The notes: a model not told the origin generated them from the letters alone. DNA of 64,000 nt from Candidatus Aldehydirespiratoraceae bacterium (GCA_965198315.1 OZ240616.1:3383671-3447670); one strand, 5' to 3'. Shown: positions 1 to 23,109, numbered from the stretch's first letter. Numbers and translations: made by a program.

Positions 1-2213
<2,213 letters not shown>

Positions 2214-2216
2214 CAG

Positions 2217-3431
2217 TCACTCTCCCACTGGTTCGCGGGCCGACACTTCTCGACTGCGCCTGAGCAACTCAATCAACTTCGGTGCCGGTGTCAGGGAAGT
2301 CTCTGTGAGTTCCCAACCGATGCCGGCCTCAACCGCCGCGGCTGATGCTTGCGATAGCAACTGTGCGGCAGAATCGCGGTCAACTTCAAGTGGCTCCGGA
2401 GCTGAACCATCACGGCCCACTAGCTCCAGAACCGGCTTGTGTTCTGGGATCAACAGGCAACGAGACCGAAGATCGTGATCTGCCTCGTATCCGTAGGCAA
2501 TAGCCGCGACACCCAGTGCGGCTACGGCTGTGCGCGCTGCCACCTCTGCCTCTCGGCTTACGTTGCTAAAACGCAGACGTCTTAGTGCAGCAAGCGAGAT
2601 CACCGTCGTCTGGCGGGCTTCTGAAATGGTCACCCCACCAGACTGTGCATCGATTGAGGGCGCGATATTGCCGTGATTGATTTCGGAAGGACGACCGTCA
2701 GATCCCGCAGTCTTGGCTTTTCCCTTCTCTTGGGCCGCCTCATCTTTGTCCAGCGTCCATACTTGGGCCGGATCACTGTGTTCATACGCAATCGCTGCGG
2801 CACGTTCGATCTGGAGCGGATCAATGCGGCTCCCGACCTTGCGCCCGATCTGAGCATCCAAGCCGACAATCTCCGACACATAGGCACGTTGAAACTTCGA
2901 GCCCAAGCCACCCTTGGGGCCAGTCGAGTCCCACTGGCCGAACAAGAGCGCCGTTGGTGCATACTGGAACATCGCCCTCGCGTTTCCCGGACGCGCATCG
3001 GTGATGTCTTGACCGACTTCACTCAGCCGGAACAACGTTCCTTCAAGCATGCTGTCGCGGAAGATTGCGTCCGCAAATCGATGGGGCGCATCCAACACCG
3101 TGATCTTGCCAAGGTCTGCGACAGCGGCCTCTCCCGTAAAATCCACGTAAGGAACCGGGAAACGCAGCTCCCCTTCTTCCCAACCTTCCTTCAAAGCAAG
3201 TTCAGCACGGTTTGCCTGGGAAGCCACGGAGTCGAGCAACACAGTTGTCACCACGCTGTCTCCTACCTGCCGTTCCTCAACGGCATACTTGTGCTCTGCG
3301 GTGACTGCGTAGGTCGGCGGAAACACTTTCCCTCCAGGCCCGTCCACGGGTTGCAGTCGCATGATCGAGCGAAGCGCCACTGCCCCGCCCCCAACCGCAT
3401 CGCGCAGCAAGTCAATAGTCAATTCAGCCAT
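2217..3431 (-). CDS. csb1: Type I-G/I-U CRISPR-associated RAMP protein Csb1 (Cas7u)
   Basis: 404-aa ORF containing LQPVDGPGGKVFPPTYA, LLDSVASQANRAE, VLDAPHRFADAIFRDS, LLFGQWDSTG and EINHGNIAPS, which are typical Csb1/Cas7u blocks from memory. A GAAGGAGG RBS lies upstream of ATG 3431. Confidence 0.8.
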   Translation of the reverse strand: MAELTIDLLRDAVGGGAVALRSIMRLQPVDGPGGKVFPPTYAVTAEHKYAVEERQVGDSVVTTVLLDSVASQANRAELALKEGWEEGELRFPVPYVDFTGEAAVADLGKITVLDAPHRFADAIFRDSMLEGTLFRLSEVGQDITDARPGNARAMFQYAPTALLFGQWDSTGPKGGLGSKFQRAYVSEIVGLDAQIGRKVGSRIDPLQIERAAAIAYEHSDPAQVWTLDKDEAAQEKGKAKTAGSDGRPSEINHGNIAPSIDAQSGGVTISEARQTTVISLAALRRLRFSNVSREAEVAARTAVAALGVAAIAYGYEADHDLRSRCLLIPEHKPVLELVGRDGSAPEPLEVDRDSAAQLLSQASAAAVEAGIGWELTETSLTPAPKLIELLRRSREVSAREPVGE

Positions 3432-3595
3432 TCAAGGCCTCCTTCTCTGGGGCTCAAGCACGGCACTCAAGCTAGGCGGATCAACCTAGCGCGGGGGTAT
3501 GACACTTTCGCCATATATACATCATGTCTGCCTTAGAATTTCACCATAAACGTGTGGAAGGGCGTCGCTGTGATGCCGACGAAGTACCCGAAAAC

Positions 3596-3950
3596 CTAGA
3601 ACTCGGCGGCGATGGCGTCTTCGAAGGAGGTGTCGGACTCGATGAGCATTCGGTAGCGCATCACGTGGCGGGGGCGGTTGAAACCCAAGACGCCAACCAA
3701 CCGACCGGCGCGGCCGTAGATCGCCGCGAAGCGCCTCTCGGAAAGGCTTCCCGTGGCGAGATGCATCTCGTCGTCGAGACCGATACGGCCGGCCATCTGA
3801 ATCTTGCGATCGTACTGATCGGACCAGAACCAAGGCACCGGCATAAAAGGCTCAGCCTCATCGTCACCGACCAGCAAGCGTCGGGCCGCATGAGCACCCT
3901 GTGCAACAGCGTTGTCGCGATGCTTGACACGCATCACTTCGCCGAATCGT
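3596..3950 (-). pseudogene. 3'-terminal fragment (last ~118 codons) of a ferredoxin reductase gene, copy of 4925-5279
   Basis: 355 bp align colinearly with 4925-5279 at roughly 90% identity by eye. Similarity starts exactly at the stop codon (ctagaa) and ends after ccgaaNcgt. The peptide RFGEVMRVKHRDNAVAQGAHAARRLL...RMLIESDTSFEDAIAAEF differs at 9 positions from the intact gene's C-terminus. No FAD/NAD-binding N-terminal part is present. Confidence 0.85.
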
Positions 3951-3965
3951 GACAATGTCAGTCTC

Positions 3966-4595
3966 TCACCATCCGGGCGGTTTGGTGATGGTTCCAATTT
4001 CGTCGGTCAACGTGTCAGGGAATTGGCTTCGCTTCAAGTGGCTCTTCCAGAGACGCTTCACGTAGGTCGCAGAATCGACCAGGTTCCTTGTGCTCCGATT
4101 GCGGGGGTCTGGGTTGACCACCACGACGCGCATACCCAAGCCGTCTCGCACAAACCGCATCGCCCCGGCGAAATCGGCGTCGTTGGATACGACTACCGCT
4201 TGCTCACATTCACCGTTGAAGCCATCGACCAGCAAACGAGTCGCAAGGTTCACGTCCGAACCCTTCTCCTCTGAGTTCCTCACCAACACGCTGCTGGGCA
4301 GCCCCGGCACCGGCTCCGCAAGGGGACGACGATTGACACCGGAACTAAAGTAACCGTAATAGACAATCAATTCCGGTAGCGTCTCCAGCGCCCTGAGGTA
4401 GATGAGTTGACGCTGAGGTTGCCCTTGATCGCCAGGACGAATTTCGAGCCGGGCCGTGAAGTAACAGACTCTGTTGATGGTGTCTTCAGGGAAGAGGGTC
4501 TCGGCCAGTTTGTGCAGGTCAAGCCAACGAAACGGGGTGTCCTTAAGAGCGCGGTAGTAGAGATTGAATCCGTCGATGTACACATTGGTGATCAA
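3966..4595 (-). CDS. NYN (LabA-like) domain protein, putative RNase
   Basis: VYIDGFNLYY ... CYFTA ... EEKGSDVNLA ... VVVSNDADF ... ITKPPGW fits the stand-alone bacterial NYN-domain family. The track ORF extends to 4706, but its first ~37 codons translate a repeated terminator-like element and a promoter-like sequence. TTG 4595-4593 is preceded by GGAGG (ggcGGAGGcggcagTTG) and gives M-ITNVYIDGFNLYY. Confidence 0.75.
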   Translation of the reverse strand: MITNVYIDGFNLYYRALKDTPFRWLDLHKLAETLFPEDTINRVCYFTARLEIRPGDQGQPQRQLIYLRALETLPELIVYYGYFSSGVNRRPLAEPVPGLPSSVLVRNSEEKGSDVNLATRLLVDGFNGECEQAVVVSNDADFAGAMRFVRDGLGMRVVVVNPDPRNRSTRNLVDSATYVKRLWKSHLKRSQFPDTLTDEIGTITKPPGW

Positions 4596-4604
4596 CTGCC
4601 GCCT

Positions 4605-4667
4605 CCGCCAAAAGACAGAGACCGCCCCGAAAGGCGGTCTCGACCCTACCGTCGAATCGAATAGGGG
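4605..4667 (-). repeat. 63-bp repeat copy A (hairpin GAGACCGCC-N6-GGCGGTCTC plus T-tract), in the NYN 5' leader
   Basis: 60/63 identical to 4800-4862. Contains a 9-bp perfect stem at 4618-4626/4633-4641. Confidence 0.9.
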
Positions 4668-4677
4668 TGGTGCCTGA

Positions 4678-4706
4678 ACACTATCGTCAGCATCATCGAC
4701 CGTCAA
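4678..4706 (-). promoter_or_regulatory. Candidate promoter for the NYN gene (-35 TTGACG, 17-nt spacer, -10 TAGTGT)
   Basis: The minus strand reads TTGACGgtcgatgatgctgacgaTAGTGT (-35 at 4706-4701, -10 at 4683-4678). It lies between the two 63-bp repeat copies. Motif match only. Confidence 0.3.
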
Positions 4707-4799
4707 CCCTATTCGTCAAGACGGGTTCAAAAAAGAAAGAGGACACGAGAGGACTGGAAACACAACCTGGCTATCAAGCGCCGCCTCGGCCAATAGTTG

Positions 4800-4862
4800 C
4801 CGCCAAAAGACAGAGACCGCCCCGAGAGGCGGTCTCGACCCTACCGCCGAAGCGAATAGGGG
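4800..4862 (-). repeat. 63-bp repeat copy B, downstream of the ferredoxin reductase stop
   Basis: 60/63 identical to 4605-4667. Confidence 0.9.
4803..4836 (-). terminator. Intrinsic terminator-like hairpin after the ferredoxin reductase gene
   Basis: Minus strand: GAGACCGCC-tctcgg-GGCGGTCTC followed by TGTCTTTTGG, about 90 nt after the stop at 4925. Confidence 0.6.
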
Positions 4863-4924
4863 GCAGTGCTTGAACCCTGCCATGGCGAGGCCAACTGACA
4901 ACTCCGCGGTTGGTGACCAACGCG

Positions 4925-6142
4925 CTAGAAATCGGCGGCGATTGCGTCGCTGAAGGAGGTGTCGGATTCGATGAGCATCCGGTAGCGCATCACGTGGCGG
5001 GGGCGGTTGAAACCCAAGACGCCGACCAGGCGACCGGCGCGGCCGTAGATCGTCGCGAAGCGCCTCTCGGCGAGGCTGCCCGTGGCGACATGCATCTCGT
5101 CGTCGAGACCGATACGGCCGGCCATCTGGATCTTGCGATCGTACTGATCGGACCAGAACCAAGGCACCGGCACGAAAGGCTCAGCCTCATCGTCATCAAC
5201 CAGCAAACGCCGGGCCGCGTGCGCACCCTGTGCAACAGCGTTGTCCCAATGCTCGACTCGCATAACCTCACCGAAACGTTGATTGGGCCAGCGAGCAACA
5301 TCACCGGCAGCAGTCACCCCCCGAGCCGCCAGACAAGTGGCGTCGCACACCACACCGTTGTCGATCCTCAACCCTGAACCCTCGAGCCATTCCGTGTTGG
5401 GGATCACTCCGATCCCAACGACAACCACGTCGGTCTCGATCACATTGCCGTCGCTGAGCCGCACCCGCTCCACCCGGCCGTCGCCTTCGATCGCCTCAAC
5501 ACCGACGCCGGTGCGCAGATCAACACCGTGTTCACGGTGCAACTCAGCGCACACCGCGCCCATCTCATCGCCCAGCACCCGACTCAAGGGCTGAGGCAAC
5601 GACTCGATCATCGTCACCTCAAGTCCCTGTGTTCTGGCGGTGGCGGCCACCTCGGCACCAATAAACCCGGCACCCACGATGACCACCCGAGCCGGACCCG
5701 CATCAAAAGCAGCCCGGATCGCCAGCGAGTCGTCCAAGCTGCGCAACACGAATACACCGTCGAGTTCCTCAGAACCCCCCAGCGTGCGACAACGCGCACC
5801 CGTAGCGATCAACAGCCCGTCAACGGCGAGCTCCTCACTGCTCTGATCATCGAGATCCACGATCCCCAAGCGCCGAGACGACAGATCAAAGCTCCTAGCC
5901 CGCACACCCAAACGAAGATCAAGATCAAGGTCATCGAGCTTTTCGGGCTGGGTCAACACCAGACGATCCTCGCCCCAATCACCTGCAAGGAACTGCTTGG
6001 ACAAGGGCGGGCGGTCGTACGGAGCATGCAGTTCGTCGCCGATCAGCGTGATCGGCCCGTCGAAGTCATGACGCCGAAGCGACTCCGCTGCCCGTAACCC
6101 TGCCAGAGAAGCTCCGACGATAGTGACAGAGCGCCGCGTCAT
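4925..6142 (-). CDS. NAD(P)H-dependent ferredoxin reductase (FAD-dependent pyridine nucleotide-disulfide oxidoreductase family)
   Basis: 405 aa. It has two dinucleotide-binding motifs (VTIVGASLAGLRAAESL and VVIVGAGFIGAEVA), and its overall layout resembles putidaredoxin/rhodocoxin-type reductases. It lies directly downstream of a small ferredoxin gene. Confidence 0.85.
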   Translation of the reverse strand: MTRRSVTIVGASLAGLRAAESLRRHDFDGPITLIGDELHAPYDRPPLSKQFLAGDWGEDRLVLTQPEKLDDLDLDLRLGVRARSFDLSSRRLGIVDLDDQSSEELAVDGLLIATGARCRTLGGSEELDGVFVLRSLDDSLAIRAAFDAGPARVVIVGAGFIGAEVAATARTQGLEVTMIESLPQPLSRVLGDEMGAVCAELHREHGVDLRTGVGVEAIEGDGRVERVRLSDGNVIETDVVVVGIGVIPNTEWLEGSGLRIDNGVVCDATCLAARGVTAAGDVARWPNQRFGEVMRVEHWDNAVAQGAHAARRLLVDDDEAEPFVPVPWFWSDQYDRKIQMAGRIGLDDEMHVATGSLAERRFATIYGRAGRLVGVLGFNRPRHVMRYRMLIESDTSFSDAIAADF

Positions 6143-6194
6143 AGATGCAAAAACCGTGGTGAGCCCTCAGTCGGCCCCTCAGCCCCCCAGCCCC

Positions 6195-6386
6195 TCAGCC
6201 CTGAACAGAGATGGCCTGCTTGGGGCAACGCTGAACGCACTCGTCGACTCGTGCGCGGTCTTCCTCACCGGGTTCTTCGTTCAGCACATACAAGAAGTCG
6301 TCGTCACGCACTTCAAAGATGTCCGGCGCGATCTGCATGCAGATGGCGTTGCTCTCACAGAGGTCGAAGTCAACCACGATCTTCAT
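6195..6386 (-). CDS. Small ferredoxin (3Fe-4S/4Fe-4S type, P450-system-like)
   Basis: 63 aa: MKIVVDFDLCESNAICMQIAPDIF...CVQRCPKQAISV, with the CxxxxxC...CP cluster-binding pattern. An AGGAAAGG RBS is present. Confidence 0.85.
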   Translation of the reverse strand: MKIVVDFDLCESNAICMQIAPDIFEVRDDDFLYVLNEEPGEEDRARVDECVQRCPKQAISVQG

Positions 6387-6468
6387 GGGTCACCTTTCCT
6401 ATCAGGTCACAGGGGAACAGGTCACTCCGGAACTTAGCCCACGCAGGGCTCTGGTGTGAACATCAGCG

Positions 6469-6534
6469 TCAACCAACGCCAGATCCGGCACGGCCTCCGC
6501 TGCGATCCACCACGATGTTGTACCGCTCGCGAAC
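6469..6534 (-). pseudogene. Displaced 3' end of an mttB-family gene (remnant)
   Basis: The minus strand reads ...VRERYNIVVDRSGGRAGSGVG-stop (TGA 6471-6469). The VRERYNIVVDRS part is encoded by the 38-bp repeat shared with the intact gene's 3' end at 11667-11704. Confidence 0.65.
6497..6534. repeat. 38-bp direct repeat, left copy (cassette boundary)
   Basis: ccgctgcgatccaccacgatgttgtaccgctcgcgaac is 36/38 identical to 11667-11704. Flanks on both sides are unrelated. Confidence 0.9.
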
Positions 6535-6702
6535 AACCTCCCACATCCCCGAGTCGATCAACAAGTTGTAATTCCCACCTTTAAGTCCTGGCCGCACTGC
6601 GTTACGGGCCTGCACCGTAATCCATAGAGGAGTGTTTTCATATTATTTCATGTACTTTACGAACGGAAGGAATCGAAAAGCCATGAAGATAGAAGTGATA
6701 AC

Positions 6703-7119
6703 TTGTCACCCCCCTACTACAACCAGTTGCCTGAGCAGCTTCAACGGGAGTTGGAGACAGCTGAGCGAGTCCGCCTCACCCCTGTTGAGATTCCCAGCGA
6801 AGAATTTAACTCCTTGGCAGCCGACGGTGTGCCAATGATCTACGTCCTGGTGGGCGGACATCTGCTGGTGTCGAAACGAAAAGTCGGCGATGAGCACATC
6901 TCCCATGCCGTGCTCGCAAACGGTGGCCCTGTGCAAGCCGCCGGGGAGTTCGATATCGGGACCGAACACGGAGCGCCCGTCGTATCGACCCTCAACAACA
7001 TGAGCGGTCACTACCGTCCAGCCGCAGCAAGCCTCGAGGTCGCCCGAACAGCATTCGAATCAGCTGGGGTACGGATCCCACCGGGTGCTGTCCAAAGCTA
7101 CGATTGGGGAGAATCATGA
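6703..7119 (+). CDS. Hypothetical protein (138 aa), upstream partner of the giant ORF
   Basis: ORF with a TTG start directly after in-frame stops (tgataacTTG). Its stop overlaps the next start (ATGA at 7116-7119). I recognise no family. Start uncertain (see findings). Confidence 0.55.
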   Translation: MSPPYYNQLPEQLQRELETAERVRLTPVEIPSEEFNSLAADGVPMIYVLVGGHLLVSKRKVGDEHISHAVLANGGPVQAAGEFDIGTEHGAPVVSTLNNMSGHYRPAAASLEVARTAFESAGVRIPPGAVQSYDWGES

Positions 7120-10100
7120 CTGCCGCAACCGCGCCGAGACAGCCCGCCGAGCCGGAGCCAACGATAGTCGACTCCGCACTTGAACGAATCGCGGAGGCGA
7201 CCGACTTCTTCGAATTTGAACAGGCGTGGATTAACGGATTGCGCCAACTGTCCGCCTCAGACGGAAGCGATTGCAGAGCGATGCTCTTGGCCGAAGCTGG
7301 CAGGCGACTCAGTGTGTTTGACGACATCAAGTACGATATTGCGCGGCGGCGCTGGCTCGACCAAGTGGTCGCGGAGGTGCGGATGCGCGGTGACTCATCC
7401 CTGGAAAGAGGGCTTGCGGTAGTGGCGACGAATGAACTCCGCGAGGCCTTCGCTAACGCCCGCCCAGCGATTACAGATCTGCGGGCGGCCGTGAATTCCG
7501 GGGAGAGCCTACATGAGTTCACGATTCGCTGTCCTTTAGCTGCGAATCAAGTCCGTGACCTCGGACGAATCGCAGAGGGACTGAGCGGCAGCGACCTGCT
7601 GGCGCTGTGTTCTGCGGAGGATTGCGAACTCGCCCGTAGTCTGGTGCGAGCCATGAAACCCCCAATCCATCTCGTGCCGACGGTACCTGAGTCCTTGCGG
7701 ATTACCCGAGATGACCTGCTTCAATGGGCTAAGACCAGTGGCGCTGCCACGGCATTCCCGAGGCTGATACGCAGTCTCATCGCCGAGACCGAACCGTCTG
7801 CTGAATCGGTCCACATGCCCGCAGGCACCGGGGTGGCGTCGCCTGGCTTTGACGGGGGCGTTAGATGTGCTCGCGGAAACCGCTTCGTACCAGCGGGAAC
7901 CTCCGTGTGGGAGCTGACAACACAGCAGAGAGGCACCCACGGCAAGGCTGTTGAGGACTACACGAAGCGAGTCAAAAACTCGACGTCTGACCAACGTTCC
8001 GAGACTGCGTACGTGTCGGCCGCGTGCGCCCCTTGGACGAAAGCACAGGCATTTGAGTCCCAATACTCCGACGACGGCGACTTCAGCAGGGTCAGCGCTT
8101 TGAACGTCGACAATCTTGAAGACTGGCTGTCGTGTGCCATCGCCACGACTGTCTGGATGTGTGAGCAGATCGGCAGGCCGACCGACGGCATCAGACTGCT
8201 GGCCGGGTGGTGGGAGAACTGGCTCACAGCAACGACTACTCCCCTTGACGAACGCTTCGTGCTCGCAGGACGCGATAAGGCAGCCACTGATCTGCGCGAT
8301 CGCTGCAAGCAAAACCCCGGCGTCGTCACCATTGGCGGTCAAGTCCACCGCGACGAGATGGTCGCCTTTGTCGCTGCCGCGCTCCTCCCCGAAGAAGCTG
8401 AGGGGATGGGTGTCGGGGATGTGCTCTTCGTGGACGATCACAAGTCCGCTCAACGGCTGTTCGCGCAGGAAGTTCTGTCGATGCCTTCGGACCAGCAAAG
8501 CGCCGGTCCCGTGCTGACGATGGTGGTGCCGTCAGCGGACTATGCGCACCACCTGCCCGCCGGAAGCCCACATCGGATTATCGTGCCGGTCCCCGGAGGT
8601 CCCCAAACCGAAATCGTCCTCGATTCGGTCGACTCGACAGTGGTCAGCAAGCACTTCGAGACCACCGGAATGGAACACCACGAGGCGTACCGCCTGGGTG
8701 GGCTGGCTCGAACGAGCCTGATGGCGCTCCGGCGGCATCTCACCGCCCAAGCAGCCTTGCACATGCCCGAATGGGCGAAGAGGACACCCGACCGAACGAT
8801 ACGGCGAAGCCTGCTGCTCGGCGGTTGGAATGCGGCCCGCAGGGGTGATCGTGAGATCGTTTCACGATTCACCTGCCAGTCACACGAGGATGTGGCCGAG
8901 GAGTTGCGGAAACTCGACCCCGGCGATTCACCGATGACTTCAACCGGCGAACTGTGGCATGCCGTATCACCAGCAGACACTTGGATGCTGCTGCGCGCGC
9001 ACCTATCCCCCAGCGATCTCCAAGAGTTTGCTGAAATCGCAGTCGAGGTGCTCACGGCTTCTGACCCGCTGCGAGAGATGAGTCACGAAGAGGCGCTCCG
9101 AGCCCAGGTCGAGGGCATCAAAGCCAAGTTCTCATCTCAACTCAAGCATGGGATTGCAACGACGCTGGCACTTGCGGGGACCGACCCTCCCACCCACCAC
9201 GGCGAAACGACGCCAGACTCGAACTTCGCGGAGGGAACAACTCGGCAAGTGCTGGACTCTGCCATGGACGACACAACTCCAAGCACGTGGATTGCCGTCA
9301 CTGATGCGTTGCCGATACTTGCCGAGGCTGCGCCCGACGCAGTACTTAAGAGCTTGCGGACCTGTGTAGCCGAGCAGCACGCGTTCACTGAAGCCATGTT
9401 CACCGACCACGATGACAACTTGTTTGGCTTCTCGGCTTCGTCGCCACACCTTCGGATCTTGAATGCGCTCGAAGTCATCGCATGGTCACCTGACCACCTG
9501 CTGGCCGCAGTAGACGTCCTCGCCCGACTCGCCTCCATCGACCCTGGCGGCCAGTATTCGAACCGACCCGATGAGACTCTCGCTTCGATCCTGTGTCCGT
9601 GGATGCCGTACACATCCGCCGACATCGAAGTTCGGCTCAAGGCGGTCCGAATGCTGCGGCAGGCCCATCCAAACGTCGCTTGGCCGCTGATGCTGTCTAT
9701 TTTGCCACGGAACCACAACGTCCAAACCCCTGGGGCATTGCCGCAGTATCGAGACTGGAGGCCCTCGCAGCGGGATGTGACGCTCAGCGAGCGTGTGGCG
9801 CCCGACGAGCGCACGCAAGCAACTACCGAAATCGCCGCGATGCTGATTGACGACGTTGGAGGCGACCCCGAGCGCTGGACGGACTTGATCGGACGTGTCG
9901 GCGACCTTCCTGTGGAAGCCCGCCGAAGTGCAGTTTCGGTCCTAGGGGACCTTGCAGCTGCCGGAGCCGACGAGGCGTTCAGGTCAAGGGTCTGGCCGGT
10001 ACTAAAGGTATTCGTTGCACGTCACCGGCAGTTCCGCGATGTCAAGTGGGCACTCCCGTCAGCCGACCTGCTGGTGTTCGAGCAGATCATGGACGATCTC

Positions 10101-11546
10101 CGTCCCGCTGAACCCTCGATCTCCTCCGGTGAGTTGTTTTCCAACAGCCCCTTCCACCTTGATGGTGTATGGGCTGCGGATGGGTATGAGGAGTTCCGAA
10201 AAGCTCTACTACCGAGACAGACGGAGGCCGTCGACGCGGTCATGTCCAGCGGCGGGTTCAAAGCGCTGTTCGAATTCGCTGCTGCGGTTGACAATCCGCG
10301 TCAAGTTGGCAGAGCCCTTGCGCGCTGTCGGCCGGGTCTTGATGAGCAAGTACTTCCGGCCATGGATTCCGCTCGCGAGGCAGTCACACAGGTATCGCTG
10401 GGCTATTTCGGCCAACGTTTTGCCTCGCTGGAGTGGCAGGGTTTGGAGCAACTGCTCAGAGAGAACGATCTGTCACCTCAAGTCACTGCGGATGTGCTGC
10501 GCGCACCTCCCCCAGTGGCGCGTGCTTGGACGCGGGTAGAAGCTCACGGTGCCGAAGTCGCAGCCGAGTACTGGAGCCGTGTGAGCTACTACGACCTCGG
10601 AATCCCGGACGGATTAGACCAGTTGCTCGAGGTGTATCGCCGGCTACTTGCAGTAGACCGCCACGAACTGGCTCGGTGGTTGCTCACGCTGCGTGCGAAG
10701 GAATACGCGTCCCATCCTGAGTTCGCCGAGGAGGCCGCTGCCCTTCTCGAACACTGGCTTGAACACCCGGGTGGCGAGATCAAGCAGAACGCCATGACCA
10801 GTTGGCGATTGGCCTCGCTCTTCAGGACTCTCGACAACCACCGAGACCATCTGGGTACGGCGCGTGTCGCTGCCCTCGAATGGCAATACCTCCCGCTCCT
10901 TCAAAACGATCCCGAGTTCAGTTCGCCGAATCTGTACCGGGAGATGCTGCATGACCTCGACCTGTTCGTGCATTTCGTGGAAATCGCCTTCATGCCTGCC
11001 AACGCTGCAATGGACGAACGACCCCCGCTGACGACAGCACAACAACAAATGGCACTCAGTGCCTGGGGCGTGCTGCGCGATTGGCCAGCCTCACAGTTCA
11101 CGCCGGGGTTCGACAATGAAGACAAACTCGATGAGGTCTCGCTCAACGAGTGGGTCGACCGCACTCGCGAGAGGCTTGCAGCAGTCGACCGGGCGGACAT
11201 CGGTGATCAGATGATCGGGGCCGCACTCGCCTCTTCTCCGGCAGACTCAAACGGGGATTGGCCCGGTGAGGCCGTTCGCAATCTGCTGGAACGACTGCAG
11301 AGTGACGATGTAGAGCAAGGTCTCTATACCGCCATCCTCAACCAGCGTGGTATCACGACCCGCTCCCCAACTGACGGCGGCAACCAGGAGCGCGAACTCG
11401 CAGACAACTACAAAGAGCAGAGCTGTCGCTACCAGCAGTGGCCCCGTACAGCGGCCCTCTTCAGCCAGCTTGCAAAAAGCTACGAGCACGAGGGCGGCGT
11501 TCTCGACCGTCAGGCCGAGATCTCCCGCCGCGGCTTACCGAGATAA
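7116..11546 (+). CDS. Hypothetical giant protein (1476 aa), no recognisable NTPase motif, largely alpha-helical
   Basis: Uninterrupted 4.4-kb ORF. ATG 7116 follows GGGGAG and overlaps the upstream stop; the track start TTG 7104 is 4 codons earlier. No Walker A, TM segment or signal peptide was seen. Confidence 0.85.
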   Translation: MTAATAPRQPAEPEPTIVDSALERIAEATDFFEFEQAWINGLRQLSASDGSDCRAMLLAEAGRRLSVFDDIKYDIARRRWLDQVVAEVRMRGDSSLERGLAVVATNELREAFANARPAITDLRAAVNSGESLHEFTIRCPLAANQVRDLGRIAEGLSGSDLLALCSAEDCELARSLVRAMKPPIHLVPTVPESLRITRDDLLQWAKTSGAATAFPRLIRSLIAETEPSAESVHMPAGTGVASPGFDGGVRCARGNRFVPAGTSVWELTTQQRGTHGKAVEDYTKRVKNSTSDQRSETAYVSAACAPWTKAQAFESQYSDDGDFSRVSALNVDNLEDWLSCAIATTVWMCEQIGRPTDGIRLLAGWWENWLTATTTPLDERFVLAGRDKAATDLRDRCKQNPGVVTIGGQVHRDEMVAFVAAALLPEEAEGMGVGDVLFVDDHKSAQRLFAQEVLSMPSDQQSAGPVLTMVVPSADYAHHLPAGSPHRIIVPVPGGPQTEIVLDSVDSTVVSKHFETTGMEHHEAYRLGGLARTSLMALRRHLTAQAALHMPEWAKRTPDRTIRRSLLLGGWNAARRGDREIVSRFTCQSHEDVAEELRKLDPGDSPMTSTGELWHAVSPADTWMLLRAHLSPSDLQEFAEIAVEVLTASDPLREMSHEEALRAQVEGIKAKFSSQLKHGIATTLALAGTDPPTHHGETTPDSNFAEGTTRQVLDSAMDDTTPSTWIAVTDALPILAEAAPDAVLKSLRTCVAEQHAFTEAMFTDHDDNLFGFSASSPHLRILNALEVIAWSPDHLLAAVDVLARLASIDPGGQYSNRPDETLASILCPWMPYTSADIEVRLKAVRMLRQAHPNVAWPLMLSILPRNHNVQTPGALPQYRDWRPSQRDVTLSERVAPDERTQATTEIAAMLIDDVGGDPERWTDLIGRVGDLPVEARRSAVSVLGDLAAAGADEAFRSRVWPVLKVFVARHRQFRDVKWALPSADLLVFEQIMDDLRPAEPSISSGELFSNSPFHLDGVWAADGYEEFRKALLPRQTEAVDAVMSSGGFKALFEFAAAVDNPRQVGRALARCRPGLDEQVLPAMDSAREAVTQVSLGYFGQRFASLEWQGLEQLLRENDLSPQVTADVLRAPPPVARAWTRVEAHGAEVAAEYWSRVSYYDLGIPDGLDQLLEVYRRLLAVDRHELARWLLTLRAKEYASHPEFAEEAAALLEHWLEHPGGEIKQNAMTSWRLASLFRTLDNHRDHLGTARVAALEWQYLPLLQNDPEFSSPNLYREMLHDLDLFVHFVEIAFMPANAAMDERPPLTTAQQQMALSAWGVLRDWPASQFTPGFDNEDKLDEVSLNEWVDRTRERLAAVDRADIGDQMIGAALASSPADSNGDWPGEAVRNLLERLQSDDVEQGLYTAILNQRGITTRSPTDGGNQERELADNYKEQSCRYQQWPRTAALFSQLAKSYEHEGGVLDRQAEISRRGLPR

Positions 11547-11656
11547 GAAGACTGACCCGATTCCTTCCGGAACTGCACACGGCTACTGCGCGAAACGTCT
11601 GTCTTCTGTCTGCAGAATAGTGGCGTCATACCAGCCGCGACTACCGAGACTGCTGG

Positions 11657-13249
11657 TCAACTAGCACCGCTGCGATCCACCACAATGTTGTAGCGCTCGC
11701 GAACTGCAGCATCAGCAACAGGGTCAACGTGAGCCGGAAAATGGGAAGACAAAACCTCTTTGGCGTATTCGTGAGCCACTCGCAGCGCGTCCTTACCGCC
11801 AGCATCCACCCAGTCATCGGGCGTGTCACGATCCCCAATGAGCGGATAGATGTACTCCTTCTGCATCAACTCGAGCGTCTGAGGCGAGCCGAGGAAATGA
11901 CCCGGCCCGTTCACGACTTCTGTAATGAGGTTGGCAGACAACGTCTCTTCGTTGACCTCGATACCGCGAACGGTGCGGTTGATCGATCCCAGCATGTCGT
12001 TGTCGATCACCAGAGCTTCCAGTGAGCAACTCAGCAGACTCCCGAGCATCCCCGCGCTCTCATACACGAGATTGGCCCCCGCCTGGCCGGCCAGCACGAC
12101 GTTGATCCCCTTCTCGTAACCGGCCTGGTTGTCCGGGACTTTCGAGTCGGTCATACCCGCCGCCACACCCGATGGCAGCCCCAACCAGTTCACAACCTGC
12201 GCGGCGGCCGCGTTGAGCACCCCCTCCTCACCGCTCCCTCCACTCATCGCCCCCGTACGGAGGTCCGAGACGAAGGGCCAAAGCCCCATCACGCAGGGAT
12301 GACCGGGGCTCATCAGGTTGACCGCGGTGAGCGCAGAGAGGCATTCGGCGAGTGCCTGGGCCAGCGAACCGGCCAGCGCGGCCGGCGAGGTCGCCCCCGC
12401 CTGACCCGCCGACAACAGGTTGATCGGCATGCCCGACTCCACCTGGGCAACCATGCAGTTCGTCGATTCCTCAGCGAAACGCAGCGGCGGAACGACAAAA
12501 GTGTTGTTGGCGGCCACAAACGGTCGCTTCCGAAATGATCCCTCTCCGCCCGCCATCATGTCGTACATCTCGACCGTCTCATAGACATGGGCCCGCTCGA
12601 ACCACGATGTGCCGACAGGTTTACCGGTGCCGACTGTGGCGCCATAGGCAGTGTTGAGATCCAGTTCACGCGAGTCCTCGCGGTCCCGTGCCACCACGGT
12701 GCGGACAAAGAAATGGATGTTGTCGAGATAGTCGACCAGGCGGGCGCAGTTGTAGACGTCTTGAGCGGTGCTGTGCCGGAAGGTGTTGGTCTGGTAGTCG
12801 TACATCAGCACCGCAGCGCCGGCGGTTCCGAAATGGACACGGTCGCCACCGACCTCGATCGAGCGGTCGTCGTCGAAGCCGTGCCAGGTCCATTCCTTGG
12901 CCGCGGTGGCGATGGCGTTCTCTATGAGTGCTCTGGGGTACAGCAGCCGACCCGAATCGTCAAGGGTGCCGCCCGCGTCGACGACTACTTCCACGAACTC
13001 CGGAACTGGAGACCCCATCCCCACATGTTCCAGAAGGCCCAGCGCCGTGTCGTAGACCTGCTGCATATCCGAGTCGGCCAAGGGCTTGAATTTCCCGCCT
13101 GGGAGTCCGGGCCGAACCGGGCGTGCGTCTTCTTGCAGGGGCGCAGCGCGTTCGGCAATGCGCCCGGCACGTCCACCTGACCTACGGCGACGAGGCTCGT
13201 CGCTCACTGTGGGTTCACAGTCCCTCCCGTGCGGTTGCCCGACCGACAA
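11657..13249 (-). CDS. Trimethylamine methyltransferase (MttB) superfamily protein, non-pyrrolysine type (quaternary amine, e.g. glycine betaine, methyltransferase candidate)
   Basis: 530 aa. The N-terminus ...RRRRSGGRAGRIAERAAPL...PGLPGGKFKPLADSDMQQVYDTALGLLEHVGM is typical of the MttB family. There is no in-frame amber codon. Confidence 0.8.
   Translation of the reverse strand: MSVGQPHGRDCEPTVSDEPRRRRSGGRAGRIAERAAPLQEDARPVRPGLPGGKFKPLADSDMQQVYDTALGLLEHVGMGSPVPEFVEVVVDAGGTLDDSGRLLYPRALIENAIATAAKEWTWHGFDDDRSIEVGGDRVHFGTAGAAVLMYDYQTNTFRHSTAQDVYNCARLVDYLDNIHFFVRTVVARDREDSRELDLNTAYGATVGTGKPVGTSWFERAHVYETVEMYDMMAGGEGSFRKRPFVAANNTFVVPPLRFAEESTNCMVAQVESGMPINLLSAGQAGATSPAALAGSLAQALAECLSALTAVNLMSPGHPCVMGLWPFVSDLRTGAMSGGSGEEGVLNAAAAQVVNWLGLPSGVAAGMTDSKVPDNQAGYEKGINVVLAGQAGANLVYESAGMLGSLLSCSLEALVIDNDMLGSINRTVRGIEVNEETLSANLITEVVNGPGHFLGSPQTLELMQKEYIYPLIGDRDTPDDWVDAGGKDALRVAHEYAKEVLSSHFPAHVDPVADAAVRERYNIVVDRSGAS
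11667..11704. repeat. 38-bp direct repeat, right copy (inside the 3' end of mttB)
   Basis: ccgctgcgatccaccacaatgttgtagcgctcgcgaac; see 6497-6534. Confidence 0.9.
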
Positions 13250-13287
13250 AACAGTGCGGCTGCGAAACTGTAACGCATCGTAAGCAG

Positions 13288-15711
13288 CTAGGCGCGAAGC
13301 ACCGAGTTAGTCGGGTCATAGGCAGGCTCTGACAGCACGGTCGCGGTTCTCATCTCACCGAGAAGTTCCAACTCGAAGGTCGAACCAGGTGCCTCGAACC
13401 CAGGAGCGACATACACAAAGGCGAGACTCTTGCCGACCGTGTGACCCCAGGTGCCGCTGGTGGCGATGCCCATGACTTTGCCGTCTTGGTCGAATGCGCC
13501 TTCGTTGCCGCGCACATCGTTGTCGGTGGCGTCGACTTCGCAATAGACGAGCACCATCGACAGCGGTTCAGCCTGCTCGGCGCGCGCAACCGTGGCGTCC
13601 TTGCCGATGAAATCGCCGGTGAAGTCGACGAAACGTTCGAGGCGGGCTTCGATCGGGGTGATCTCGGTGGTGAGTTCGCTGCCCCAGGCCTTGTACCCCT
13701 TCTCGATGCGCATGACGTTCATGGCATATGCACCGAAGTGGATCATTCCGTGGGGTTCTCCGGCAGCCACGAGCGCACCGTAGAGTTCGGCCATCTCAGC
13801 GATCGGACAATGCAGTTCCCAACCAAGTTCGCCCACATAAGACACCCGCAATGCCTTACAGGCAACTCCTGCCACTTCGATCTCTTGAGCCGTCAACCAG
13901 CGAAATGACTCGTTGCTGAGGTCGGCTCCGGTGAGAGGTGCAAGCACCTCTCGGGCGCGTGGTCCAGTAACGGCCAACAGGCCATAAGAATCGGTCATAT
14001 CGGTGACGGTCACATCCTCTCCCGTATCGATGTGCTGGTTCAACCAGTCCAGGTCGTGGGTGGTGCCGATGACCGCGGAGTTGAGATAGAAGCGATCAGC
14101 AGCAAAGCGGGTGATCGTCATTTCACATTCGATACCGCCCAGTGAGGTGAGCATGTGTACCAGCCGCATACCGCCGTCTCGGACTGGGATCTTGTTGGCG
14201 GAGACTCGATCAAGCAGCGCCGCGGCATCAACTCCTGTGACCTCGAACTTGGCAAAAGCGGTGAGATCAGCGATGCCGACCCGTTGGCGAGTTCCGTTGA
14301 CTTCACGAGCGACGAAGTCGAAGGCGTTGGAGCGCCGGAACGAGTGCCGTTCTGGATCGCCGAAGTACTGCGGACGCTCCCAGCCGTACACCTCCTGCCA
14401 CTGAGCTCCCAACGCGTCGAGACGGCTATAGATCGGGTTGACCTTCTGGCCTCGCGCCACCGGCCGCTGCTCCCCGGGGAGACGGACCTGATACATCTCG
14501 TGGTATTCGTCGATCGCTTTTTCGATGGCGAACACCGATTTGGGGCCGGTGTGGTCTCCGAAGCGGCGCGGGTCCATGGCCCGCACATTGATTTCAGTCT
14601 GACCATGCACGATCCATTGGGCGAGATACTTGCCCGCTCCAGGACCCTGGGTGATTCCGATTGAGGCACCGTTGCAATGCCAGTAGTTGCAAAAACCAGG
14701 GGCTGGTCCCATGAGATAGCCGGAGTCCGGAGTGTGGGTGATCGGACCCGACACGATCTTCTTGATCCCCGCTTCAGACCAAGAAGGGATACGCAGCATC
14801 GCCAGTTCGAGGCACTCGGCGATGTTGTCGATGTCTGGCGGTGTGAGATAGAAGTCAAGCCCCCAGTCGATCCCGTCAACACCATAGATTTGAGCGTTGG
14901 CCATCTCGTAGGGTCCGATCAGCAACCCGTCGATCTCGCGACGGTAGTAACAACTCGACCGGGGGTCGCGTGTCACCGGCGGTTCGAAGCCGAGATTGCG
15001 CATTGACTCGAGCGGTTCGGTGATGACGTATTGGTGGATGACCGAGACGATCGGCACGTCGAGGCCGATCATCGCGCCCAACTGAGGGGCGTAGTGGCCC
15101 GCGGCGTTGACCACGTGCTCGCAGGTGATGGTGCCTTTCTCGGTGACGACCTGCCAGCGTCCGTCGGCCAGCTGGGCCATGTCGACAACCCGGTTGTGGC
15201 GCTGGACCTCACACCCGAGTTGACGGGCCCCTTTGGCCATTGCGTTGGTGCAACCCGTGGGATCGGTCCACCCGTCGTGGGGAGTGTAGAAACCCGTTTT
15301 CACGTCGGAGACATCTTCGAGAAGCGGGTTGAGTTGTTGGACCTCTTTTGGCCCGACGATGTGGGACTCGACACCGATCTGGTTGAGCATGGCGTGCACG
15401 TAGCGGTGCCAGTCGACTTCATCATCAGTGCGCGCGATACGCACCGCCCCACATCCGTGCCAGCCCGCTGAAAGGCCGGTCTCCTCCTCGATGTCGGGGT
15501 AAAGGGCGATCGCGTCTTGATGCACTTTCGCCATGTTGAGATCACCGATGAAGTTGGGGATCAATCCCGCCGCGTGCCAAGTGGAACCCGAAGTCAGTTC
15601 ACCCTTTTCGACCAGGATCGTGTCGGTCCAGCCTTCGTGGGCGAGGTGGTAGAGCAGACCCACACCCATGGCCCCGCCTCCAATGATGACGCAGCGCACC
15701 TCTTGGTTCAT
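13288..15711 (-). CDS. FAD-dependent oxidoreductase with C-terminal GcvT-type folate-binding domain (dimethylglycine/sarcosine dehydrogenase-oxidase family)
   Basis: VRCVIIGGGAMGVGLLYHLA (GxGxxG) is followed by a GcvT-like C-terminal half (~800 aa in total). The start is corrected to ATG 15711 (RBS AAGGAGAG); the track start 15843 would overlap the upstream gene. Confidence 0.85.
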   Translation of the reverse strand: MNQEVRCVIIGGGAMGVGLLYHLAHEGWTDTILVEKGELTSGSTWHAAGLIPNFIGDLNMAKVHQDAIALYPDIEEETGLSAGWHGCGAVRIARTDDEVDWHRYVHAMLNQIGVESHIVGPKEVQQLNPLLEDVSDVKTGFYTPHDGWTDPTGCTNAMAKGARQLGCEVQRHNRVVDMAQLADGRWQVVTEKGTITCEHVVNAAGHYAPQLGAMIGLDVPIVSVIHQYVITEPLESMRNLGFEPPVTRDPRSSCYYRREIDGLLIGPYEMANAQIYGVDGIDWGLDFYLTPPDIDNIAECLELAMLRIPSWSEAGIKKIVSGPITHTPDSGYLMGPAPGFCNYWHCNGASIGITQGPGAGKYLAQWIVHGQTEINVRAMDPRRFGDHTGPKSVFAIEKAIDEYHEMYQVRLPGEQRPVARGQKVNPIYSRLDALGAQWQEVYGWERPQYFGDPERHSFRRSNAFDFVAREVNGTRQRVGIADLTAFAKFEVTGVDAAALLDRVSANKIPVRDGGMRLVHMLTSLGGIECEMTITRFAADRFYLNSAVIGTTHDLDWLNQHIDTGEDVTVTDMTDSYGLLAVTGPRAREVLAPLTGADLSNESFRWLTAQEIEVAGVACKALRVSYVGELGWELHCPIAEMAELYGALVAAGEPHGMIHFGAYAMNVMRIEKGYKAWGSELTTEITPIEARLERFVDFTGDFIGKDATVARAEQAEPLSMVLVYCEVDATDNDVRGNEGAFDQDGKVMGIATSGTWGHTVGKSLAFVYVAPGFEAPGSTFELELLGEMRTATVLSEPAYDPTNSVLRA

Positions 15712-15745
15712 TCTTTCTCTCCTTGGTTCACCGTCTCGAGCTCCC

Positions 15746-18217: not shown

Positions 18218-18346
18218 ACACTAGCGAATACAGACCGCGCAAGTGTGTCGATCTGGCCGGGTATTTTTCGAGTTTTTGTCGAAGTGGGCAGGCGTGGCGA
18301 TCGTCGGGTTTCGGGCCACCACAACGAGTGCCGTATTGTCGGGTTG

Positions 18347-19540
18347 ATGAGTGAAACCGAACAAAGTCGACCAGTCGATGCAGAGAGTTCCGCCGACCAG
18401 GAATCCGAGGTGCCACCGGACCTTAGTGGCGCGCCGAAATTCCACACTGATCGCAGCCACTACGGACCCGCTTTGGAACAATGGATCACCAGGCGATACC
18501 CGAACCGTGCCGGTGCCACCGTCACCAACATCGACATCCCGGTATCCACCGGTTTTTCCAACGAGACGGTGTTCTTCGACGCCTCATGGTCCGAGGACCG
18601 AACCGAATGCTCCGACCGCTTCGTGGCCCGCATCGAACCCGCCGGAGGCGCGCTGTTCCCAGCCCAGAGCAGCCACTGCGGAGTCTCTGTTGAGGTGCAG
18701 TACCGGGCAATGAAGGCCGTCGGGCTTCACTGTGATGCTCCGGTGCCCGAACTGCTCGGCTACGAATCAGACCCAGCGGTCATCGGTCAACCCTTCTTCG
18801 TGATGGGATTCACCGAGGGCCGGGTGCCCGCTGATCAGCCCCGCTATTCCGAGGAGGGATTCCTGGTCGACGAGGCGACACCGGCCGAGCGCCGTCGCAT
18901 GGTCGCCACCGGTCTGGAGGCGATGGCGCAGATCCATTCAATCGACTGGCGCGAGGCCGGACTGGATTGGCTCGACACCAGCGGGACCGGACAACCCAGC
19001 ACACGAGTGCAGCTTGATCTCTACCGGGCGTCCACCACCCGTGAACTGGCCGGTCGGGAACATCCGGTACTTTCAGCAGCTCTTGATTGGTTGATCACCA
19101 ACGATCCCCAAGACGATCGTGTTGGTCTGTCGTGGGGTGACAGTCGGTTGGGAAATGTCTTGTGGCAGGACTACCGCCCGGCAGCGGTGCTCGATTGGGA
19201 GGCTTGTGCCTTGTCGCCCACTGAGGCTGACGTTGGTTGGTGGCTGATGTTTGATCGGATGTCGTTCGATGATGTGGGAGCTGCCCGCATGGAGGGGTTT
19301 CCGACCCGATCCGAGATGATCTCTCTCTACGAGCAGGCGTCTGGTCGTGAGGTTCAAGCCCCGCACTACTGGGAAGTCTTCGGAGCTATGCGCTTTTGTG
19401 CGATCTTCATCGGGCTCGGCGACCGCATGACCAACAGTGGTCTTCTTCCCCCCGAGATGAACCCCGCGGTACACAACATGGTCACTCAGGCTCTAGCTGA
19501 CCTACTTGGTATCGACAACCCGACGCCGTCAACTATCTAG
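18347..19540 (+). CDS. Phosphotransferase family protein (aminoglycoside phosphotransferase/kinase-like fold)
   Basis: LSWGDSRLGNVLW ... VLDWE is a catalytic-loop-like pattern. The start is corrected to ATG 18347 (MSETEQ...); the track start 18005 overlaps the divergent gene. Confidence 0.7.
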   Translation: MSETEQSRPVDAESSADQESEVPPDLSGAPKFHTDRSHYGPALEQWITRRYPNRAGATVTNIDIPVSTGFSNETVFFDASWSEDRTECSDRFVARIEPAGGALFPAQSSHCGVSVEVQYRAMKAVGLHCDAPVPELLGYESDPAVIGQPFFVMGFTEGRVPADQPRYSEEGFLVDEATPAERRRMVATGLEAMAQIHSIDWREAGLDWLDTSGTGQPSTRVQLDLYRASTTRELAGREHPVLSAALDWLITNDPQDDRVGLSWGDSRLGNVLWQDYRPAAVLDWEACALSPTEADVGWWLMFDRMSFDDVGAARMEGFPTRSEMISLYEQASGREVQAPHYWEVFGAMRFCAIFIGLGDRMTNSGLLPPEMNPAVHNMVTQALADLLGIDNPTPSTI

Positions 19541-23069: not shown

Positions 23070-23109
23070 CCCACTCAAATCTATCAGCCCAAATTACATT
23101 GCTGAGACT

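Follow-up and report, generated by a model that had tools for sequence, protein, structure and literature searches.

Does the very large, 1476-residue protein encoded in the genome of a Candidatus Aldehydirespiratoraceae bacterium belong to an immune system, and if so, to which kind? A first-pass annotation had raised this question from the architecture of the protein, i.e., an effector-like N-terminal region on a large helical scaffold, as seen in sensor-type immune proteins. Using a 64,000-nucleotide stretch of this genome (GCA_965198315.1, OZ240616.1:3383671-3447670), which we call the window and from whose first nucleotide all positions are counted, we analyzed the giant gene (7116..11546, plus strand) together with a small gene directly upstream (6703..7119, plus strand). 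We propose that this locus is a two-gene antiviral defence module, and that the giant protein represents an Avs8A-related lineage of sensors of the STAND type (signal transduction ATPases with numerous domains), a reading that we hold to be probable rather than certain.

The uninterrupted 4.4-kb open reading frame (ORF) of 1476 codons described previously is confirmed at 7116-11546, and it runs from an ATG at 7116 to a stop codon at 11544-11546. A mechanical ORF listing begins 12 nt earlier, at a TTG (7104); we prefer the ATG at 7116, because a GGGGAG Shine-Dalgarno-like motif (7106..7111, plus strand, within the end of the small gene), which may act in translation of the giant gene, lies 4 nt 5′ of it, because this ATG forms an ATGA overlap with the upstream stop codon, and because homologs share this Met. 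The close homologs of the giant protein (n = 156, 45-84% identity, equal length) are nearly all from metagenome-assembled genomes of sponge-associated Acidimicrobiia (Candidatus Poriferisodalis, Acidimicrobiaceae); a full-text literature search returned no paper naming the genus Poriferisodalis. These homologs, and the 4440 representative clusters recovered by the exhaustive profile search described below, demonstrate that the giant gene is not a chance ORF. A regular-expression scan of the protein found no [AG]xxxxGK[ST], no GK[ST] and no DEAD motif, with no [DE]xK tripeptide within residues 187-330, and the Kyte-Doolittle maximum over 19-residue windows is just 1.33, so that we predict no transmembrane segment. 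The absence of a Walker A motif, of a DEAD-type motif and of a transmembrane segment reported by the first-pass annotation is therefore upheld, and the peptides that it cited are all in their places: LLQWAKTS...DYTKR at residues 201-285, VVTIGG at 403-408, VLFVDD at 436-441, VLTMVVPS at 466-473, RIIVPVP at 487-493 and the C-terminal GGNQERELADNY...DRQAE at 1421-1468. Profile searches of the PDB, with either 120 close or 32 distant homologs, gave chance-level matches alone.

How widespread is this protein? We built a profile from residues 187-720 and searched exhaustively with HMMER (E <= 1e-3, with clusters formed at 50% identity), which identified a family of 4440 representative clusters, 1958 of them at E <= 1e-30. 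Most family members are 1250-1270 residues long and match the profile from about their residue 7, and a 32-sequence alignment showed that these ~1260-residue members are colinear with residues ~187-1476 of the window protein over their full length, at 24-42% identity. We found members in Armatimonadota, Gemmatimonadota, Chloroflexales, Actinomycetota and Rubricoccus, and on plasmids or chromids of Rhizobium, Ensifer, Cupriavidus metallidurans CH34, Ralstonia, Shewanella baltica, Arthrobacter and others; a tblastn search against plasmids returned family members, matches to a helix-turn-helix (HTH) region only, one 110-residue remnant on a Salmonella plasmid, and nothing else. Existing annotations of these proteins read “hypothetical”, “helix-turn-helix transcriptional regulator” or “HigA family antitoxin”. 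For the family core there is no Pfam or NCBIfam model, and a Pfam scan of 32 distant members found N-terminal HTH domains and one C-terminal AIG2/GGACT domain only, with no Mrr_cat, NACHT or NB-ARC. What precedes the core is variable: there may be nothing at all, an XRE/HigA, ArsR or LacI domain, LexA with an S24 peptidase, an integrase, PF18929, or an unidentified extension. For example, a phage-integrase domain lies N-terminal to the ~1260-residue core in P0470, as do a LexA DNA-binding domain and an S24 peptidase in P0480; in P0294 it is the C-terminus that carries an additional domain, the AIG2/GGACT (gamma-glutamylcyclotransferase-like) domain (E = 3.9e-10).

Is there a nuclease in the N-terminal part of the giant protein? 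We built an AlphaFold2 model of residues 1-640 with 120 homologs (predicted local distance difference test, pLDDT, 85; predicted template-modelling score, pTM, 0.72), and this model, together with the conserved residues D246, E266 and K277, delimits a PD-(D/E)xK/Mrr-like domain at residues ~187-330 (7674..8105, plus strand). The DSSP assignment (helix 210-225, strands 229-233, 247-251 and 261-268, helix 274-288, strand 297-303) gives the order alpha-beta-beta-beta-alpha-beta over residues ~198-330, i.e., the topology of a PD-(D/E)xK core, with Trp-rich helices following it, and with D246 located just before strand 2 and E266 on strand 3. Among 120 close homologs D246, W265, E266, K277, Y282 and R285 are essentially invariant, and over 32 distant homologs D246, S263, W265, E266, K277, D281 and R285 are invariant. 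The position of the ExK lysine (residue 268) is occupied by Ser or Thr in all 119 close homologs that have a residue there, and by Ser, Gly or Thr in distant family members; the invariant K277, at the start of the following helix, is a candidate replacement for this lysine. The first-pass description of a beta-rich patch loosely like PD-(D/E)xK, and without a canonical ExK, was thus accurate on both points, and its proposed test, i.e., whether the D, E and K residues are invariant in an alignment of homologs, has a clear outcome, since D246, E266 and K277 do not vary even at 24-42% identity and are among the best-conserved positions of the protein. Outside this core, the family-wide invariants include G385, R386, W553, D578, D621, E737, W790, G1065, W1153, E1255, G1368, E1392 and E1425.

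Residues ~379-640 (8250..9035, plus strand) are predicted, using the AlphaFold2 model and Foldseek, to form three successive parts, a STAND/AAA+-like nucleotide-binding domain, a helical domain and a winged helix. In the model this central module has an alpha/beta part at ~400-495, helices at 507-568, and a winged-helix-like arrangement of a strand (570-572), helices (576-598) and a hairpin (607-616). The best Foldseek match in the PDB is CED-4 (E = 1.9e-3, probability 1.0, 445-506 aligned columns), and further top matches include PAB2304, SSO1545, SAMD9, subunits of RFC and NSF, and the Dark apoptosome of Drosophila. We therefore class the module as STAND/AAA+-type by its predicted fold, an assignment at the level of fold and not proof of homology. 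CED-4/Apaf-1, PAB2304, SSO1545 and SAMD9 are the closest fold relatives of residues ~380-620, but all have a canonical P-loop, and the likeness is one of fold only (7-13% identity, E of at least 2e-3). This revises two earlier statements. The “Rossmann-like” domain proposed at ~380-520 is alpha/beta as claimed, and the term was imprecise, in that the region is better described as a STAND/AAA+-type domain that leads into a helical domain and a winged helix; and the label “without NTPase motifs” was correct about the motifs and missed the apparent NTPase ancestry, i.e., a degenerate Walker A in a STAND/AAA+-like fold.

Examination of the P-loop-equivalent loop demonstrated how far this degeneration has gone. 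In the giant protein the loop reads T405-I-G407-G408-x-V-H411-R-D-E414, and in 120 close homologs it follows G-V-[VI]-T-[IV]-G-G-x-V-H-R-D-E-I, with G407, G408 and E414 invariant and with Lys-Ser/Thr never present. In the wider family it is shorter still (x-A-D-S-x-x-E-A), and E414 and H486 alone are nearly invariant within the alpha/beta domain. A Walker A pattern occurs in 15 of the 360 family proteins that we fetched, at scattered, non-homologous positions. Since the motif is gone from the wider family too, we place its loss at the origin of the family and not in one branch of it. A Walker-B-like VLFVDD lies on the next strand (436-441), and of the 120 close homologs 99 retain its D440.

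The remainder of the giant protein is a long, presumably alpha-helical repeat body at residues ~641-1400 (9036..11315, plus strand), identified from hydrophobic periodicity and from a Leu/Ala/Arg/Glu-rich composition. Averaged over the 32-sequence alignment, 79-88% of windows in residues 640-1476 have alpha-type hydrophobic periodicity; for comparison, the value is 88% at 520-640, where the model has helices, and 31% in the beta-rich core that resembles a nuclease. The helical body noted by eye in the first pass is hence supported indirectly, by the AlphaFold2 helices at 500-640 and by this periodicity; of the repeat types, TPR was matched in 1 of 32 diverse members, and then only weakly (TPR_4). 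By analogy with Avs proteins, the body is a putative ligand sensor. It ends in a conserved C-terminal motif at residues ~1401-1476 (11316..11546, plus strand), where the last ~70 residues carry N-x-R-G-x-T-x-R-x4-G-G-x-Q-E-R-x-L ... W-P-R-T ... Y-E ... D-R-x-A-E; over the 32 distant homologs, E1425 is invariant and N1409, R1411, G1412, G1421, G1422, P1443 and R1444 are conserved in at least 90%.

To which known system is this architecture related? Our PADLOC scan of 32 diverse family members identified the model PD-Lambda-4_A (1283 positions) in nine, with a best E of 3e-8. For example, residues 135-185 of P0333 match profile positions 151-196 (E = 2.7e-4), residues 294-336 of P0363, which follow a ~160-residue extension, match positions 151-193 (E = 4.8e-4), residues 598-750 of P0372, with an 87-residue extension before its core, match positions 529-677 (E = 8.9e-7), and residues 689-794 of P0353 match positions 596-707 (E = 0.039). 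Wherever coordinates were seen the matches are colinear with the profile, in segments of 45-150 residues. PD-lambda-4 has been renamed Avs8, in which Avs8A consists of an Mrr nuclease domain, a P-loop NTPase and C-terminal repeats, and in which Avs8A binds HK97-fold major capsid proteins with nanomolar affinity and then degrades double-stranded DNA (bioRxiv 10.1101/2025.07.02.662641). A 2026 census of STAND proteins confirms Avs8 as a capsid sensor, and describes KpAvs8 as having degenerate Walker A and B motifs, “suggesting a lack of ATPase activity” (PMC13581612). This link in 9 of 32 relatives, together with the several homologs that are located in defence islands, lends support to the sensor-type immune reading of the first pass, at the level of a plausible interpretation, as which it was offered.

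The likeness to Avs8 goes beyond these segments. The length of the PD-Lambda-4_A profile is close to that of the family core (1283 positions and ~1260 residues), the domain order is the same (an N-terminal Mrr/PD-(D/E)xK-type domain, a STAND-type module and a long C-terminal repeat body), the Escherichia coli system is likewise a two-gene operon with a small partner, and degenerate Walker motifs are already known from KpAvs8 (PMC13581612). The differences are equally clear: Walker A is gone from every family member examined and not from one homolog, the ExK lysine is replaced by Ser, Thr or Gly, the clade of the window protein has an added 186-residue N-terminal extension, the small partner in the window matches neither PD-Lambda-4_B nor any other PADLOC model, and in Avs8 the trigger is an HK97-fold capsid protein. 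Through its family, the window protein is therefore most likely related to Avs8A at a distance, and it does not belong to Avs8 itself. A broader resemblance exists to Avs3, Avs4 and Avs7, which combine an N-terminal nuclease-type effector, a STAND centre and a large TPR-like sensor, and which are found in defence islands (PMC13581612); unlike the giant protein these have functional Walker A and B motifs, and they have no detectable sequence similarity to it.

The first-pass annotation overlooked two elements of this locus, the small partner gene and the nature of residues 1-186 as a clade-specific addition. The small gene (6703..7119, plus strand, read from the sequence, with homologs upstream of other giant genes) starts at a TTG and encodes 138 residues, and its TGA (7117-7119) overlaps the ATG of the giant gene (7116-7118) by 4 nt, as ATGA. 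The same 4-nt overlap occurs in six loci, i.e., the window and the loci L001, L005, L006, L007 and L015. The small protein family has 172 matches, with the same narrow distribution as the close homologs of the giant protein, and has no Pfam domain; the small protein of the window matches no Pfam, PADLOC or NCBIfam model, a Pfam scan of 120 homologs found nothing consistent, and cNMP_binding, returned for 9 of these 120 at E of at least 0.003, was judged to be a chance match. AlphaFold2 predicts a compact fold (pLDDT 93.3, pTM 0.89) that has no match in the PDB (best E 0.2), and that in the viral structure collection BFVD resembles two unnamed viral proteins, each with a probability of 1.0: G8DGH9 (351 residues; E = 1e-4, 25% identity over 97 columns) and E5EQ39 (166 residues; E = 1.5e-3). 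Conserved residues are H68, A80-G-E82 and N99-x-S101-G-H103-Y-x-P106.

Residues 1-186 of the giant protein (7116..7673, plus strand) form an all-helical N-terminal extension, in which residues 14-180 are modelled as a helix bundle. This extension is present in the window protein, P0243, P0250 and P0257 only, among the 32 aligned sequences, and is absent from the ~1260-residue core family; only the clade with the small partner gene has it. P0250 (36% identity) and P0257 (34%) have both the extension and a homologous small gene directly upstream of the giant gene, with a 15-nt gap at one of these junctions and an 11-nt overlap at the other, and their small proteins keep H-[AS]-V, A-G-E and N-x-x-S-G-H-Y-x-P. 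The giant protein of Rubricoccus has a different N-terminal extension, and an upstream gene of 178 residues with a 4-nt overlap and a hydrophobic segment, which we considered as a homolog of the small partner and rejected, as it has no similarity. We also rejected homologs of “1283-1286 residues” as a true variant without the extension: these are gene calls with a late start, and L015 has a full 1463-residue ORF that overlaps the small gene. The core-only family members that we examined have no conserved partner gene. Since the small gene and the extension travel together, the small protein presumably acts together with the 186-residue extension, to which it probably binds, and the simplest view is that both are accessory to a core machine that can function without them.

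These observations also bear on a different division of labour within an immune system, in which the 138-residue protein would be the true effector, i.e., an enzyme or toxin that uses its conserved His, Ser-Gly-His and Glu residues, and the giant protein a sensor or carrier with a dead nuclease-like domain. The lack of a canonical ExK lysine in the giant protein, the confident compact fold of the small protein (pLDDT 93), the retention of its polar motif where the partner giants are only 34-36% identical, the translational coupling of the two genes, and the covariation of partner and extension are all what this arrangement would lead one to expect. We nevertheless consider it unlikely, as most ~1260-residue members have neither extension nor partner and still keep the D/E/K core invariant, as L004 has an intact giant gene and a broken small one, and as the small protein resembles no toxin or enzyme family that we searched. 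The known system Avs8 points the same way: Avs8B, the small operon partner of Avs8A, has no recognizable domains and is dispensable (bioRxiv 10.1101/2025.07.02.662641).

Do the genes around the giant gene and its homologs fit a defence function? In L005 and L006 the gene pair is located among genes for a DUF1156 methyltransferase, DUF499/HEPN_Swt1, a reverse transcriptase (RVT_1), AAA_23/SMC-like ATPases, SNF2-NOV_C helicases, PemK and SLFN_AlbA_2. The pairs in L004 and L015 adjoin ~970-residue genes without recognizable domains and a PDDEXK_1 gene. One wider-family member lies amid a PemK/RHH pair, an ImmA/IrrE-type gene, an MmeI-type restriction-modification gene, SNF2 genes and a DEAD/MZB helicase gene, and another, on a conjugative plasmid, adjoins AbiE, with insertion sequence (IS) elements on its flanks. 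In L001, the neighbours of the pair are ADP-ribosylglycohydrolase and phosphatase genes and a DDE transposase; in L007 suf-type (SufBD) genes lie on either side of it, and upstream there is a PIF1/AAA_30-type helicase gene. In L010, from Rubricoccus marinus, the giant gene and the 178-residue gene are located between minus-strand AAA_34 ORFs (2626-12981), with a resolvase nearby, and the AAA_34-domain ORFs on both flanks suggest that this module was inserted into an AAA_34 gene. The window has type I-U/I-G-like cas genes at a distance of 3.3 kb from the pair. In total, roughly half of the eleven contexts examined contain recognized defence or toxin-antitoxin genes, a count that should be read qualitatively. 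The position of the giant gene differs between related genomes; we class it as accessory and mobile, with L007 and L010 read as signs of mobility.

This mobility, and the company of toxin-antitoxin genes, invite the alternative that the locus is a toxin-antitoxin or addiction module that stabilizes mobile DNA and senses no phage. Such a module would be consistent with two overlapping genes, with the HigA-antitoxin-type HTH of some relatives (TIGR02607, E = 1.7e-25), and with members on conjugative plasmids, beside other toxin-antitoxin systems. We regard it as very unlikely, given that a protein of 1476 residues with a STAND-like core and a ~800-residue helical body far exceeds any toxin-antitoxin architecture, that most members are single genes, and that there is no HigB/RelE-like partner upstream of the one HigA-fused member examined, on a plasmid whose annotation is incomplete.

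The variable N-terminus raises a further question, namely whether these proteins are regulators of transcription. Many members carry N-terminal DNA-binding domains of the XRE/HigA, ArsR, LacI or LexA type and are labelled in RefSeq as “helix-turn-helix transcriptional regulator”, and the family could then be a non-immune, STAND-derived scaffold for signal transduction or transcriptional regulation, similar to MalT or AfsR, with the N-terminal additions as its output and with a PD-(D/E)xK-like domain that binds DNA or a ligand and leaves it uncut. The loss of both the ExK lysine and Walker A, and the loci without defence genes nearby, would agree with this, as would the finding that defence and non-defence STAND clades are interspersed (PMC13581612). 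Four observations make it improbable in our judgement: an HTH is missing from the window protein, no residues of the giant protein are better conserved than the acidic and basic ones in the nuclease-like core, relatives match a defence model in PD-Lambda-4_A, and the gene is accessory, being found on plasmids and near IS elements, toxin-antitoxin and restriction-modification genes. Moreover, HTH fusions are also common in defence proteins, where they serve autoregulation.

Several of our results weigh against a STAND-type immune sensor related to Avs8A. Scanned directly against Pfam, NCBIfam, PADLOC and PDB sequences, the giant protein has no match, and against PD-Lambda-4_A in particular it has none at E <= 1, so that the link to Avs8 consists of short segments in 9 of 32 relatives. 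As regards the nuclease-like domain, neither Mrr_cat nor any other Pfam nuclease model matches the giant protein or the 32 distant members, no nuclease is among the listed PDB fold matches of the model of residues 1-640, and the canonical catalytic Lys is missing from the ExK position; this domain could be non-catalytic, e.g., a DNA-binding domain. As regards the central module, the Foldseek matches are marginal (E = 1.9e-3 to 1e-1, with TM-scores of just 0.2-0.3), no Avs structure is found in the top 50 matches of the 1-640 model, Walker A, the defining motif of STAND proteins, is absent, and the wider family does not keep the Walker-B-like Asp. To these must be added the many members with an N-terminal HTH that are labelled as transcriptional regulators, and the contexts that do not resemble defence islands, i.e., L007, the wider-family locus L011, which has no defence neighbours, and the immediate metabolic neighbours of the window pair (genes for a ferredoxin reductase, MttB and DMGDH-like proteins). 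It is with these points in mind that we hold a two-gene defence module with an Avs8A-related sensor to be probable and no firmer than that.

How would such a module operate? Our analysis establishes the anatomy of the protein, its family, the remote profile link to PD-Lambda-4_A, the linkage of the partner and the genomic contexts; phage sensing, oligomerization, DNA cleavage, NTP independence and a role for the partner are what we infer. The ~800-residue C-terminal helical body would bind a conserved phage protein, by analogy with Avs8 and other Avs proteins. Binding would lift autoinhibition and drive oligomerization through the STAND-like module, and this would bring together the N-terminal Mrr-like PD-(D/E)xK domains, which would cut DNA and abort infection. 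As the Walker A lysine is absent from every family member examined, activation is probably NTP-independent. The 138-residue partner and the N-terminal extension, both of the Acidimicrobiia clade, would most likely be a regulatory or accessory unit, with the partner docking on the extension.

A bolder version of this scheme can be drawn from the same features. Here the family would be one of “pseudo-STAND” immune receptors that have given up nucleotide binding altogether, with a re-wired PD-(D/E)xK site made up of the Asp, the Glu and a Lys on the following helix, and with an N-terminal “plug-in port” that accepts different modules, i.e., HTH domains, LexA/S24, an integrase, or a docking domain for a small protein; the 138-residue protein in the window, with a fold that has no solved relatives and that is similar to two proteins of giant viruses or phages, would then be a second effector or a mimic of the trigger. 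We put this forward as a tentative possibility, and one that we rather doubt.

Several further features of these loci and of the window were recorded. Two large genes without Pfam matches (994 and 970 residues) lie 3′ of the pair in L004 (13133-20076), with a PDDEXK_1/DUF2800 gene, and one such gene (968 residues) lies 3′ of the pair in L015 (10498-14262), again with a PDDEXK_1/DUF2800 gene; in these syntenic Poriferisodalis loci the large genes may be another defence or mobile module. A tiny pair of overlapping genes (61 and 112-115 residues, no Pfam match) is found in L005 (16502-17016) and L006 (15820-16343), and its 61-residue member alone in L001 (15804-15989), so that this pair recurs ~1.3-3.4 kb 3′ of the giant gene in differing contexts. 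Of the AAA_34 ORFs in L010, one encodes 1417 residues and contains an intein-like LAGLIDADG segment; the second is a fragment of 271 residues.

In the window itself, the cas genes are Cas_GSU0054 (465-2213, minus strand, E = 9e-20) and Cas_GSU0053 (2217-3431, minus strand, E = 5e-50), followed by an ORF with an NYN-domain match (3966-4706, minus strand). Tandem Repeats Finder identified no CRISPR-like array in the window, and the remainder of the cas operon may lie beyond its left end. Between these genes and the pair are a ferredoxin-reductase-like gene (4925-6142, minus strand) and, apparently beside it and identified by eye, a short ferredoxin-like ORF (MKIVVDFDLCESNAICMQ...; ~6190-6390, minus strand). 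To the right of the giant gene, 11657-19540 is a catabolic cluster of the methylamine/glycine-betaine type, with genes for an MttB-like methyltransferase (11657-13249, minus strand), two DMGDH/sarcosine-dehydrogenase-like proteins (13288-15843 and 15746-18217, both minus strand) and an APH-family kinase (18005-19540, plus strand). The adjacent 1177-residue ORF (19545-23078) was considered as the counterpart of the PIF1-like helicase in L007 and rejected (best BLASTP E 0.13); by eye it is SMC-like. Two tandem repeats are present, one at 41448-41590 (18-nt unit, 7.9 copies, 99% match), and one at 47132-47500, a near-perfect 54/87-nt array rich in CCACACCC/GGCTCCGG; its product is probably a Pro/Thr/Gly-rich low-complexity protein.

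The general design that we propose here is well known, and degenerate Walker motifs have a precedent in KpAvs8; what is noteworthy is the size of a family that is so far without annotation, that a P-loop is missing altogether, and that the N-terminus is modular. The clade represented in the window belongs to the sponge-symbiont Acidimicrobiia (Candidatus Poriferisodalis), whose defence repertoire has barely been studied. If our reading is true, the family would be a natural experiment on a STAND oligomerization switch that is free of a P-loop, a question that the degenerate motifs of KpAvs8 already pose, and more than 4000 clusters, whose present labels are “hypothetical”, “HTH regulator” or “HigA antitoxin”, would turn out to be antiviral pattern-recognition receptors.

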